This document shows positions 20,340-29,612 of a DNA stretch of 64,000 nt, piece after piece. Numbering within the stretch: position 1 is the stretch's first letter; the number at the start of each line of letters is the position of its first letter. Location: NCBI RefSeq assembly GCF_044324785.1, contig NZ_CP172129.1, one strand, 5' to 3'. The notes beneath the pieces are model-generated. The model was not told the origin of the DNA and made no database searches. It was given only the letters and a program-made list of their open reading frames with translations. The DNA is from Escherichia coli (lineage in GTDB: Bacteria > Pseudomonadota > Gammaproteobacteria > Enterobacterales > Enterobacteriaceae). The position numbers and the translations under genes were made by a program.

Positions 20340-20962
20340 GTCCGGAATGTTTTTTCTGATGTTATTTTTCTGTGGTTACCGTGTTTGTTATTGTTCTTCT
20401 TCTTTTTCCTCTTCCTCTTCTTTCCGTTCCTCTCCTGTTTATGGCTTTTCCGGGCGTCCCCCTGGCGGGGCGGGCTGTCGTGAACGGAGCCAGCGGAGCT
20501 GTCTCCGCCCTGGCGGGCTTCCATCCCTGACGCGAAACCATGGCTTGCAGCGACCGTTCCGGTCGCGCCGCCTCTGTCGCGCCGTGGCCTGCGCTCCCGG
20601 CATCCCGGCAAAAGGCGCCGGAATGTAAGGAGCAACGCCGTTTCGCAAACCGCGCTTCACGTCGTTGCGGCGGGTCCCTGCTCATTGCCTGCCAAGTGCC
20701 ACACACCCGTATGAGTCCCTGTCGCCGGGGGCTGAGACAGCCACAACCTGCCGCACTGACTGTCCAGGGTAAATGAACAGCCCACAAAATTTTTTACCCA
20801 GAACCCGGTAAAAAATTTTGCGTTCTGCCCAGGACAGGTGCGTCAGGCCGTGGCAGTGATGCCCCTTGCGGCGAAGGTTCTCAAACGGGTGAAGTTCATA
20901 CCACAGGGAATACAGCAGCAGGTTCCCGCGAAACGTCAAAACCGCGGCTCCCGAAACTCAAC
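20340..20962 (+). repeat. Frpo/ssi-like leading-region repeat, copy A (CT-rich tract 20340-20444, core 20445-20962, apical hairpin stem 20785-20798/20807-20820)
   Basis: The core is shared with 23701-24221 and 29091-29612, starting cttttccgggcgtccccctggcggggcgggctgtcgtgaacggagccagcggagctgtctccgccctggcgggcttccatccctgacgc. A long imperfect hairpin is centred near 20802. Confidence 0.8.
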
Positions 20963-21103
20963 GGGTGATGTTCTTTAAAAATCAGGATTTATTTCAGGCT
21001 CCGGCAATACGCATTTATTTGTTCTGTCAGTCATCCGGCTGGCAGGTAATGAGAACGCAGGAACAGAAGGAGGAAAACACCGGAAAGCGTCAGATGCAGA
21101 TAT

Positions 21104-21128
21104 GAAAAAAGCAGGTCAGGGACCTGCT
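21104..21128 (-). terminator. Rho-independent terminator oriented for the minus strand
   Basis: The minus strand reads agcaggtc-cct-gacctgct (8-bp stem) followed by TTTTTT (complement of the A-run at 21105-21110). Confidence 0.6.
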
Positions 21129-21201
21129 TAATCCACGCCGTAGAAATCGCCGCAATCGATTTTCACGGCTTCACTAACCTGTGTCATAAGGAGTTTCATT
21201 T

Positions 21202-21432
21202 ATGACAGTAAGTATTGTTTCACCTTCCGCAGCGGCTGTAAAGCCCCGCCGTCATCCCCGTTTCAGACGCGAAGACATCCCCGCGCCGGAAATTGACCCC
21301 GTGCTGAAAGCATTCGGGCGACACATAGCCCGGAGTTTTCACCGGGGACGTGGTGTACACATCCCCGCCATGAAAAACACGGCTTTCGGGCAGGTGCTCC
21401 GCACACTTGAACTGAAACGCGCTTTTAACTGA
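21202..21432 (+). CDS. Leading-region hypothetical basic protein (76 aa)
   Basis: The ATG is preceded by TAAGGAG. Arg-rich. First gene after repeat A. Confidence 0.6.
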   Translation: MTVSIVSPSAAAVKPRRHPRFRREDIPAPEIDPVLKAFGRHIARSFHRGRGVHIPAMKNTAFGQVLRTLELKRAFN

Positions 21433-21483
21433 TGAGGTGAGCCGCCCCGCGAGGGGCGGCAACAGACGGAAGGAGAACATTTT

Positions 21484-22845
21484 ATGACATTAGCAGCAAT
21501 CACCATGACCGCCCCAGAAGCCGCCAGCCCTGTGCAGATGTACCGCGCGACCTACTCACCGGATGACAACAAACTGCGCCTGTATGCTGCGTCACGTCTT
21601 GACCCGGAGACGTATAAAAAAGTGCATGATGCCGGTTTTCGCTGGGCACCAAAACAGGCGCTGTTTGTGGCTCCAGCCTGGACACCGGGCCGGGAAGACG
21701 TGCTCCTCTCACTTGCCGGAGAGATTGAGGATGAAGACAGCACGCTCGCTGAACGTCAGGAAGCACGGGCGGAGCGGTTTACCGGATACAGCGGAAAGCG
21801 GGCCAGTGAATCCGCACAGGCACTTGATGAAGTGGAAAGACTGGCCGCGATGATCCCGCCCGGTCAGCCCATTCTTGTGGGGCATCACAGCGAACGCCGC
21901 GCCCGTCGTGATGCGCAGCGTATTGAAAACGGCATGAAACGTGCCGTGATGCTCGTTGAACGTGCGGAATACTGGGAAGAGCGGGCGCGGTCGGCACTGC
22001 TTCACGCGAAGTATAAAGAACGTCCGGACGTTCGCTGGCGTCGTATCAAAAAAATCGAAGCTGATTTGCGCAAGGCTGAAAAGACCATCGCGCAGTCGCA
22101 GAAATATCTGACGATATGGCGGGCTGAATCGCTGGATCTGAATATGGCAAAACTCATCAGTAGTCATGACCGTATCAGTGCCTGTTTCCCGCTGGATACG
22201 TATCCGCGCCCGGCAGAAAAAAGCCAGTATGAAGGAAGTCGATCGTTATGGTCGGCCCTGGATGATGACATCATCACCACGGAGCAGGCCCGCGAAATTG
22301 CGATCCGCTGTCATAAACGGCAGATTCAGCATCAGCAACGCTGGGTTAACCACTATCAGAACCGCCTGATCTATGAGCGTGCCATGCTGGACGAAAGCGG
22401 CGGCGTGGTTACCCGGACACAGGATTTTGAGCCGGGCGGACAGGTTTTCAGCCGGGGCGAGTGGCTGACCATCATCCGCGTGAACAAAAGCAACGGGACG
22501 GTGAGTTCAGTCACAACGCCGAATTACAGTTTTCTCGGGTACAGTGGCACGATGAAAGTGACGCCCGATCGCATTACGGACTACAAAGCACCATCGGCAG
22601 AAGAGGCTGCCGTCGCCAGTCAGGCCGCTAAGCGTCCGCCTGTTGTCAACTATCCGGGAGAAGGTTTCCGGGAAATGACAAAGGCACAGTGGGCTGCCCT
22701 GCCCCGGGACTGTAAGGCCGTGCGCAGTGTGGCAGAGGCAGAAGACCACGGGGCATATCGTTACCGCCGCACAATGGACAATAATTTCCGCCTGGTGAAT
22801 GTGTATATCACCGACATGAAGATTACGGAAATCCCACAGAAATAA
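21484..22845 (+). CDS. Leading-region protein, DUF3560-like (453 aa)
   Basis: Large conserved ORF with a good SD (GGAAGGAG). The N-terminal region (YRATYSPDDNKLRLYAASRLDPETYKKVHDAGFRWAPKQALFVAPAWTPGRED) matches my memory of DUF3560 proteins of IncF/IncI leading regions. Confidence 0.7.
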   Translation: MTLAAITMTAPEAASPVQMYRATYSPDDNKLRLYAASRLDPETYKKVHDAGFRWAPKQALFVAPAWTPGREDVLLSLAGEIEDEDSTLAERQEARAERFTGYSGKRASESAQALDEVERLAAMIPPGQPILVGHHSERRARRDAQRIENGMKRAVMLVERAEYWEERARSALLHAKYKERPDVRWRRIKKIEADLRKAEKTIAQSQKYLTIWRAESLDLNMAKLISSHDRISACFPLDTYPRPAEKSQYEGSRSLWSALDDDIITTEQAREIAIRCHKRQIQHQQRWVNHYQNRLIYERAMLDESGGVVTRTQDFEPGGQVFSRGEWLTIIRVNKSNGTVSSVTTPNYSFLGYSGTMKVTPDRITDYKAPSAEEAAVASQAAKRPPVVNYPGEGFREMTKAQWAALPRDCKAVRSVAEAEDHGAYRYRRTMDNNFRLVNVYITDMKITEIPQK

Positions 22846-28317: not shown

Positions 28318-28489
28318 TGCGGCAATAATCACACGGATTACCCGTGAACTGGTTGAACGACCAGATTATTTTCAGGGAAAGTGAGTGTGGTCAGCGTGCA
28401 GGGATATGAGCTATGATGTGCCCGGCGCTTGAGGCTTTCTGCCTCATGACGTGAAGGTGGTTTGTTACCGTGTTGTGTGGCAGAAGGCA

Positions 28490-28555
28490 GAAAGCCCCGT
28501 AGTTAATTTTTCATTAACCCACGAGGCCCCCTGTATGTCTGATCAACAACAGTAT
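28490..28555 (-). ncRNA. Sok/FlmB-like antisense RNA (approximate)
   Basis: Position inferred from R1 hok/sok architecture. It is antisense to the mok RBS and start, with a hairpin from ccccgtagttaatttttcattaacccacgagg. The ends are not determinable from sequence alone. Confidence 0.4.
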
Positions 28556-28750
28556 GGCCTCTTACCGTGCTTAATGCAAGGAGGAGTAAACCATGAAACT
28601 ACCGGGAAACGCCCTTATCTGGTGCGTATTAATCGTGTGCTGCACGTTGTTAATATTCACACTCCTGACCCGGAATCGTCTGTGCGAAGTCCGGCTGAAG
28701 GACGGATACAGGGAGGTTACGGCAAGTTTGGCTTACGAATCCAGCGGTAA
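28535..28750 (+). CDS. Mok/FlmC-like translational-coupling reading frame overlapping hok
   Basis: 71-codon frame starting at the ATG at 28535, overlapping the Hok frame. The locus aligns with remembered R1 hok mRNA, from its 5' end ggcgcttgaggctttctgcctcatgacgtgaaggtgg at 28424. Confidence 0.6.
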
Positions 28751-28754
28751 GTAG
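28593..28754 (+). CDS. Hok/FlmA-family type I toxin (53 aa)
   Basis: [53 protein letters not shown], with SD GGAGGAG upstream. Not in the ORF track because it is under 60 aa. Confidence 0.9.
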
Positions 28755-28989
28755 CAACCTGGAGGCGGGCGCAGGCCCGCCTTTTCAGGGCTGATGCTGG
28801 TCTGACTGCACTGAAGCGCCTTTATAAAGGGGCTGCTGGTTCGCCGGTGGCCCCTTTCTCCTTGCTGGCATTGTGCGGGCATGAACAACCAGACTGCCAG
28901 GAAGGCCGTTTCCCTCCGGGAACGGGGATGAACGTGCGCCTGCGGCGCCCGTTCTTTTCCCCCGCCTTCTCTGTTTATGACCTGTCAGA

Positions 28990-29612
28990 AATCACATCAC
29001 CTTCCCTTTGATTATTCTCTTTTTCCTCCTGTTCTGACTCTGATTACTGCTGCCCTGATTATTGTCTGTTTTGTTGTTCTCCTGCTTATGCCTTTTCCGG
29101 GCGTCCCCCTGGCGGGGCGGGCTGTCGTGAACGGAGCCAGCGGAGCTGTCTCCGCCCTGGCGGGCTTCCATCCCTGACGCGAAACCCCGGGCTTGCAGCG
29201 ACCGTTCCGGTCGCGCCGCCTCTGTCGCGCCGTGGCCTGCGCTCCCGGCATCCCGGCAAAAGGCCGCCGGGATGTAAGGGGCAACGCCGTTTCGCAAACC
29301 GCGCTTCACGTCGTTGCGGCGGGTTCCTGCCCGTTGTTGTGTCCGGTGCCATTCACCTGTTTAAGCCCCTGTCGCCGGGAGCTGATACAGCCACAACCTG
29401 CCGCACTGACTGTCCAGGGTAAATGAACAGCCCACAAAATTTTTTACCCAAAACCCGGTAAAAAATTTTGCGTTCTGCCCAGGACAGGTGCGTCAGGCCG
29501 TGGCAGTGATGCCCCTTGCGGCGAAGGTTCTCAAACAGGTGATGGTGAATACCGGAGGGAACAAACGGCAGGTCCCCGCAAAACGTCAAAACCGCGGCTC
29601 CCGAAACTCAAC
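28990..29612 (+). repeat. Frpo/ssi-like leading-region repeat, copy C (CT-rich tract 28990-29090, core 29091-29612, apical stem 29435-29448/29457-29470)
   Basis: Nearly identical to copy A over the hairpin half. Ends 40 nt before the ATG at 29653. Confidence 0.8.

Follow-up and report, generated by a model that had tools for sequence, protein, structure and literature searches.

The 64,000-nt stretch of Escherichia coli contig NZ_CP172129.1 (assembly GCF_044324785.1) analyzed here (the window) carries the leading region of an IncF plasmid, in which three direct repeats (A, B, and C, from left to right) lie ahead of blocks of leading genes. Each repeat very probably holds a ∼318-nt single-strand promoter of Frpo/ssi class 1 that drives the genes downstream of it upon entry into a recipient. 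An earlier note, made from the DNA letters alone, had placed the repeats in this class, and the placement held: their right ∼318 nt are 88–95% identical to Frpo1 (ssiD) and Frpo2 of the F plasmid, and position, strand, and fold agree. Elements of this class are already known, experimentally validated, and catalogued in thousands of plasmids, and the repeats themselves add nothing new to what is an established route to the expression of SOS-inhibition, SSB, and anti-restriction functions before the incoming DNA becomes double-stranded. Three by-products of the analysis are worth recording, namely an A/B chimera in F, a class 2 promoter truncated by an insertion sequence (IS), and a three-way-junction motif of ∼84 nt that accompanies each hairpin.

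Hairpin C was 94% identical to Frpo2 and 88% to Frpo1, repeat B was ∼95% identical to Frpo1 over the right ∼318 nt, and alignment with Frpo1 and Frpo2 extended over the whole length of the repeats. The ssiD/Frpo sequence given in Supplementary Table 2 of Samuel (2024; PMC11541004) aligned with the hairpin part of the repeat. F (NC_002483) has only two copies of the unit, before ssb (Frpo2, also ssp1b) and before ygeA (Frpo1, also ssp1a); B likewise precedes ssb and C a ygeA homologue. F and the plasmid studied here are alike in strand, long hairpin, flanking modules, and positions, and differ in that the latter adds a third copy, A, and a three-gene operon between A and B.

When folded as DNA, the 601-nt minus-strand segments containing the repeats reached −153 to −165 kcal/mol (z −8.0 to −10.9 relative to shuffles). 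In each copy the minus strand was more stable than the plus strand by 10–12 kcal/mol (12.5 for copy A). The single long hairpin folded in all three copies and in 11 homologues, and covariation was assessed in a MAFFT alignment of 14 homologues from F, Serratia, Lelliottia, two Citrobacter, Klebsiella, and metagenomes. Across these, 87% of pair cells were paired, vs. 40–47% when partners were slid; 19 pairs varied on both sides (62 cells), and the covariation score of 0.138 (0.093 in shuffles) was matched by none of 500 shuffles. G·T wobbles that pair only on the minus strand were invariant (columns 113/236, 14 of 14 sequences). An extended hairpin had been noted in each repeat, correctly, but it is limited to the right half of each ∼520-bp core and does not include the 89-nt identical block; the left half consists of other conserved modules. 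The apical stem described as 14 bp and perfect is so in A (20785/20807) and C (29435/29457), whereas the arms quoted for B contain one central C·C mismatch (G·G on the transferred strand). Similarly, the A-T to G-C exchange reported in B is real and belongs to the compensatory pairs of the hairpin (columns 154/185; AU 6, GC 2, UG 1), but it is not the sole change, as the apex of B is a diverged allele with many differences, which is also present in F Frpo1.

The setting of the repeats is that of a leading region. The 12 kb around them were 100% identical to the IncF plasmid pG749_1 (NZ_CP014489) and to many others; more than 5000 PLSDB records matched this region, of which 1027 covered at least 80% of it. 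An exact match to the F-type oriT nic motif lies on the minus strand, which therefore is the transferred strand, as had been proposed, and all leading genes are annotated on the plus strand, making the minus strand the template for each of them. Entering the recipient 5′ end first from the nic site near 31777, the minus strand would be drawn in leftwards through the repeats. The hairpins lie 2.2 kb (C), 7.6 kb (B), and 10.8 kb (A) from nic, all within ∼13 kb of oriT on the first-entering side, among ssb, psiB, psiA, and antirestriction genes. To the right of the operon that follows C, the annotated order is an SLT gene on the minus strand, oriT, and traM.

Single-strand-specific promoter activity is taken from published work on F, and is known from the literature for ColIb/pESBL as well. 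When Frpo1 or Frpo2 of F is deleted, transconjugants no longer show early expression of ygeA, ssb, and yfjA (Couturier 2023; PMC9849209). According to papers citing Masai and Arai (1997), Frpo1 is ssiD, the element characterized by those authors, and its stem-loop re-creates the −35 and −10 boxes and can recruit RNA polymerase in vitro. Start sites of the class 1 promoters of pESBL have been mapped by 5′ rapid amplification of cDNA ends (PMC12672017), and 13,089 Frpo homologues have been counted across 6,006 conjugative elements, in a study that also found an anti-CRISPR driven by Frpo2 to protect only from a leading position on the transferred strand (PMC11541004). Activity of the copies described here, and of copy A above all, is a prediction. 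The minus strand, while single-stranded in the recipient, would fold into the long imperfect hairpin, whose stem would mimic duplex promoter DNA; host sigma-70 RNA polymerase would start at the hairpin and copy the same strand rightwards into the downstream genes, and synthesis of the complementary strand would then remove the hairpin and shut the promoter off. C would drive the ygeA and ygeB homologues in this scheme, and B the series ssb-yfjA-yfjB-psiB-psiA. Transcripts begun at the hairpin could also prime complementary-strand synthesis.

This last step could instead be the principal one, with the repeats serving mainly as complementary-strand origins (ssi signals), the hairpin transcript acting only as a primer, and the small hairpins and the three-way-junction motif acting as loading or priming sites. 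Frpo was in fact first isolated as a priming signal, ssiD; early conversion at psiA and ygeB in F is rifampicin-sensitive, and in vivo the transcripts from Frpo serve as primers for conversion as well (bioRxiv 2026.01.09.698686). We nevertheless regard this explanation as serious but somewhat unlikely, because deletion of Frpo1 or Frpo2 abolishes downstream protein expression (PMC9849209), which establishes the promoter role and makes priming additional to it. Two other systems offer analogies for the priming role, and they are analogies only. At the minus-strand origin of the filamentous phages f1/M13 and at the paired ssiA and ssiB signals of RSF1010 oriV, folded single-stranded DNA recruits RNA polymerase or primase to start the complementary strand; the two RSF1010 signals are on opposite strands.

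Several observations count against a promoter in each repeat driving the genes that follow. A simple consensus scan returned no canonical sigma-70 promoter, and manual inspection of both arms of the hairpin gave no convincing −10 hexamer. An alternative pair of boxes is present on the 5′ arm, where an invariant TTGAGA stands 17 nt before CATCAC. Between copy A and its operon lie 240 bp with an antisense RNA gene, and the published experiments do not extend to a copy at the position of A. With regard to the boxes, the −35-like hexamer TGGACA of the 3′ arm bears a T·T mismatch and sits immediately under an 8-nt A/T-rich bulge and the A/T-rich apex; 17–23 nt beyond it, TATCAG, TCTCAG, and TCTTTG in a conserved internal loop are −10 candidates. 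The context of TGGACA, GTTCAYTTTACCCT, recurs in the class 2 promoter of F, whose TTGCAT/TAAGAT boxes occupy the same arm. Because the class 2 boxes lie in that arm, and because a truncated yet working Frpo2 construct (PMC11541004) still has the 3′-arm part, the 3′-arm boxes are favored over the 5′-arm pair, although they remain candidates. The 5′ arm doubles as the 5′ untranslated region (UTR) of the mRNA, which may account for the conservation of TTGAGA.

The proposal that the repeats define three early-expression units is supported for B and C, which are placed as in F; for unit A it is a prediction, in which copy A most likely drives the operon of the 21202 open reading frame (ORF), the DUF3560 gene, and the methyltransferase gene. 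The antisense RNA in the spacer (AS-pc01) overlaps the start of ORF 21202 and has a terminator hairpin at ∼21108–21130 followed by T6 on the minus strand. A class 3 promoter was considered for this 240-bp spacer and rejected, as the spacer contains no long hairpin (z −2.6) and the AS-pc01 gene is there instead.

Table 1. Repeats, predicted structures, and associated genes in the window (positions in nt).
Feature	Position	Strand	Basis and remarks
Repeat A, whole unit	20362–20985		Repeat search and alignment; no F counterpart at this position
Repeat B, whole unit	23619–24244		Frpo2 position, before ssb
Repeat C, whole unit	29009–29635		Frpo1 position, before ygeA/ygeB homologues
Frpo-type long hairpin A	20640–20957	−	DNA fold; outer pair 20957/20640; −97.6 kcal/mol
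Frpo-type long hairpin B	23900–24214	−	DNA fold; apex is the F Frpo1 allele
Frpo-type long hairpin C	29290–29606	−	DNA fold and covariation; apex is the F Frpo2 allele
Candidate −35-like TGGACA, copy A	20761–20766	−	Inferred
Candidate TGGACT, copy B (counterpart of TGGACA)	24017–24022	−	Inferred
Candidate −35-like hexamer TGGACA, 3′ arm of hairpin C	29411–29416	−	Position; context shared with the class 2 promoter of F
Three-way-junction motif A	20450–20533	−	Covariance model R1; most of the 89-nt identical block
Three-way-junction motif B	23707–23790	−	Covariance model R1
Three-way-junction motif C	29097–29180	−	Covariance model R1 and variant alignments
28-nt segment GGCGCGACCGGAACGGTCGCTGCAAGCC, 7-bp hairpin, repeat C	29190–29217	−	Identical in IncF and IncI1 ssi2/ssi3
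28-nt segment, copies A and B	20542–20569, 23800–23827 (2 mismatches)	−	
T/C-rich, G-poor tracts, left edge of repeats A, B, and C	20340–20444, 23597–23700, 28987–29090	+	Composition
Putative early unit A	21202–23456	+	76-aa ORF (21202), DUF3560 (21484), class I S-adenosylmethionine-dependent methyltransferase (22893); annotation, Pfam
Early unit B	24262–28400	+	ssb, DUF905 (yfjA), ParB-like (yfjB), psiB, psiA, then hok/sok; annotation
Early unit C	29653–30880	+	95-aa ygeA-like ORF, DUF932 (ygeB-like) gene
AS-pc01 antisense RNA gene (antisense to pHK01_035)	21106–21207	−	Rfam RF02875, 105 bits, E 1.5e-18
KlcA/ArdB-type antirestriction gene	19140–19565	+	Annotation; followed by DUF1380, a small ORF, and repeat A
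F-type oriT nic motif GCGTGGGGTGTGGTGCTTT	31769–31787	−	Exact match; between SLT gene and traM

A repeat search, MAFFT, and BLAST found exactly three copies of the direct repeat in the window. The copies aligned at 85–92% identity (BLAST: A–C 92.5% over 544 nt, B–C 90.7% over 592 nt, A–B 85.3% over 552 nt). Their number was therefore as originally described, but the length of ∼520 bp was an underestimate, the unit being ∼625 bp and beginning with a T/C-rich, G-poor tract of lower identity. Both shared blocks described earlier were recovered, the first as 89 nt exact at 20445, 23702, and 29092, and the second with its ends at 20847/24106/29497 and 20937/24196/29587. The spacing was also as described, with B and C ending ∼40 nt before the ATG codons at 24262 (ssb) and 29653, and A ending 240 bp before the ATG at 21202.

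Dismissal of the ORFs inside the repeats as artefacts was reasonable. The contrary explanation is that the repeats encode proteins through minus-strand ORFs of 105–141 aa, which RefSeq lists as hypothetical proteins (WP_098704380.1 covers repeat B, and F contains a similar ORF). These ORFs had no Pfam match, single-nucleotide indels between the copies shift or break their frames, and conservation tracks base-pairing and not codons, and we therefore consider a coding function extremely improbable.

Segment-wise comparison showed that Frpo2 of F (F 7980–8646) corresponds to copy A from its left flank to the equivalent of ∼29530, and from there to ssb corresponds to copy B with 0 mismatches. As an A-left/B-right chimera, Frpo2 makes F look like a deletion derivative, and the comparison suggests that F lost the 21202–23456 operon by recombination between copies A and B. 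The hybrid stem in F is predicted at −82.7 kcal/mol, ∼13–15 kcal/mol weaker than those of A and C (−95.7 to −97.7 kcal/mol). The ∼120-nt apex likewise exists as two alleles, whose positions are swapped between F and the plasmid studied here. Judged by their sequences, the repeat copies evidently recombine and exchange sequence with each other, as was anticipated for Frpo copies by Couturier et al. (PMC9849209). The region appears modular in this respect, and recombination between promoter copies would explain the difference in gene content between F and this plasmid type. The same mosaicism could be expected if the repeats were remnants or ends of mobile elements, or generic intergenic repeats, kept by recombination or gene conversion and without a function of their own. 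We regard this as very unlikely: the repeats contain neither transposase genes nor terminal inverted repeats; in IncF, IncI1, and unrelated leading regions alike, they keep a constant position and orientation with respect to the leading genes and the transferred strand; compensatory changes preserve the stems of both the hairpin and the three-way-junction motif; and function has been demonstrated experimentally in F (PMC9849209).

Each unit is composite. Along the transferred strand from 5′ to 3′, a ∼45-nt complement of the 5′ UTR is followed by the hairpin, then by CCTTACA with a small hairpin (present in both IncF and IncI1, with different sequences), a ∼60-nt stretch that is near-identical in IncF and in ssi2 and ssi3 of ColIb and contains an invariant 28-mer, the 89-nt block, and finally a purine-rich tract. 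The 28-mer (ColIb-P9 copies at 11331–11358 and 18364–18391) lies ∼70 nt 3′ of the hairpin, and its conservation between IncF and IncI1 is far above that of the hairpin itself; in 13 enterobacterial genome contigs, the 28-mer region always occurred together with a class 1 hairpin. The terminal tract, which on the plus strand is T/C-rich (G at 14–19 of ∼104 nt, vs. 28% G in the window), fills the ∼100 nt that separate the upstream operon from the structured modules. On the mRNA it might serve to load Rho, or else it might matter on the transferred strand as a purine tract free of structure.

Comparison with other single-strand promoters places the units within a broader family. The class 1 ssi1–3 elements of the IncI1 plasmids ColIb-P9 and pESBL are likewise three dispersed leading-region copies on the transferred strand with the same hairpin plan, and share the CCCTGGAC element and the 28-nt flanking segment with the repeats. 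Their identity to the repeats, ∼75–80%, is confined to the apical ∼100 nt; the IncI1 stem is shorter, and a different structured module takes the place of the IncF three-way-junction motif. The class 2 promoter ssp2, upstream of klcA/ardB in F and pESBL, is also a long transferred-strand hairpin with 3′-arm boxes after GTTCAYTTTACCCT, but is otherwise without sequence similarity to the repeats.

The window's own ssp2 (18739–19140, compared with F 6330–6760) is truncated. Homology to F ends near 18912, beside ISEc32, whose transposase gene occupies 17767–18738 on the minus strand, and the 3′ arm with the TTGCAT/TAAGAT boxes was lost to the insertion. The remnant does not fold (z +2.4), in contrast to ssp2 of F (z −7). 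In this way the klcA unit has lost its promoter arm to the IS.

The three-way-junction motif emerged from the 89-nt block. A BLAST search of phages with this block gave a marginal match (E 4e-4) to the VP1–VP2 intergenic region of Gokushovirus WZ-2015a, on the coding (viral) strand. Both sequences are predicted to form a common three-way junction, in which one inner stem is wholly different in sequence yet paired. Pattern scans located the motif in 18–26 IMG/VR contigs and at least 120 metagenome contigs, comprising at least 79 distinct variants. Among 17 variants aligned with MAFFT, 98.3% of the cells paired (30–44% when slid), and covariation was found in stems P1 and P2 and in the inner part of P4, none of them fixed by the search pattern. 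A covariance model (R1) recovered 100 instances, 95 of them distinct, with 95.7% of pair cells paired; 23 of 25 pairs varied on both sides (317 cells), and G-U accounted for ∼1% of cells. On the minus strand of the window R1 scored 90.5 bits, vs. ∼14 on the plus strand, and found exactly three copies. Among the matches listed, the P3 loop was mostly a GNA triloop (GAA 25, GTA 7, GCA 4, GGA 2), whereas that of the plasmid type was GCCA or GTCA. GNA triloops are typical of very stable DNA mini-hairpins.

The motif was compared with known elements. It was rejected as a known RNA family, since Rfam 15 gave no match at E ≤ 1 for a wide window, at E ≤ 10 for 29060–29300, or at E ≤ 0.1 for eight other motif loci, and the literature searched contained no relevant occurrence of its core sequence. 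Homology to the complementary-strand origins in the F-G intergenic regions of G4 or phiX174 was likewise rejected, as R1 with filters off matched neither G4 nor phiX174. R1 also had no match in ColIb-P9. Relaxed pattern scans of viral contigs for further microvirus examples returned tailed-phage-like contigs only.

Context differed between plasmids and phages. In leading regions, the motif lay 3′ of a long hairpin on the same strand (hairpin z −5 to −12, the motif strand being the more stable), all copies within one locus were on one strand, and the motif was antisense to the flanking DUF905, ParB-like, ArdA, KlcA-type, methyltransferase, and DUF6876 genes. In the phage-like contigs carrying the motif there was no adjacent hairpin. 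There it preceded HTH_17-integrase pairs or a terminase-like gene (small subunit by eye), or came directly behind a primase-helicase gene, and it often occurred as head-to-head inverted pairs 160–720 bp apart (11 viral or metagenome contigs), which probably flank a coding sequence, apparently one small gene. Of the motif pairs within 1 kb of each other, 15 were head-to-head and two tail-to-tail. This dispersal in both orientations in phage-like contigs is the other observation that would be expected of mobile-element remnants or generic repeats.

A role as an RNA leader was considered, and the phage contigs fit it, with a start codon often 10–30 nt further on; it was rejected for the plasmids because there the motif runs antisense to all of its neighboring genes and is not followed by an ORF. 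Its settings in plasmids, the rarity of wobble pairs, and the triloops instead point to folded single-stranded DNA as the form in which the motif would act, although what is seen in phages would be compatible with an RNA or a repeated intergenic element as well. If the repeats were mainly complementary-strand origins, as in the priming explanation above, the strand specificity of the motif, its mostly GNA triloops, and its location on the viral strand of the one gokushovirus just past the capsid gene, in the position of the G4 complementary-strand origin, would be in keeping; against this explanation, the motif model found nothing in G4 or phiX174 themselves. Returning to the repeats as promoters, we suggest only tentatively, as a possibility that we think unlikely to hold in full, that the motif, as the best-conserved part of each repeat, is a previously undescribed folded single-stranded DNA element that marks the transferred strand of many conjugative plasmids, always 3′ of a single-strand-promoter hairpin, and that occurs also in phages, including the packaged strand of a gokushovirus. 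It might govern complementary-strand synthesis, which it would either prime or, as a barrier, delay so that the promoter stays single-stranded for longer; or it might shield the hairpin from read-through transcription. If functional, it would represent a second type of single-stranded DNA signal in the plasmid establishment program and a sequence marker of the transferred strand in unannotated elements.

The Rfam search additionally placed two other RNAs of the plasmid where expected for an F-like plasmid, the sok antitoxin RNA of hok/sok at 28423–28595 and the traJ 5′ UTR with FinP at 32565–32676.

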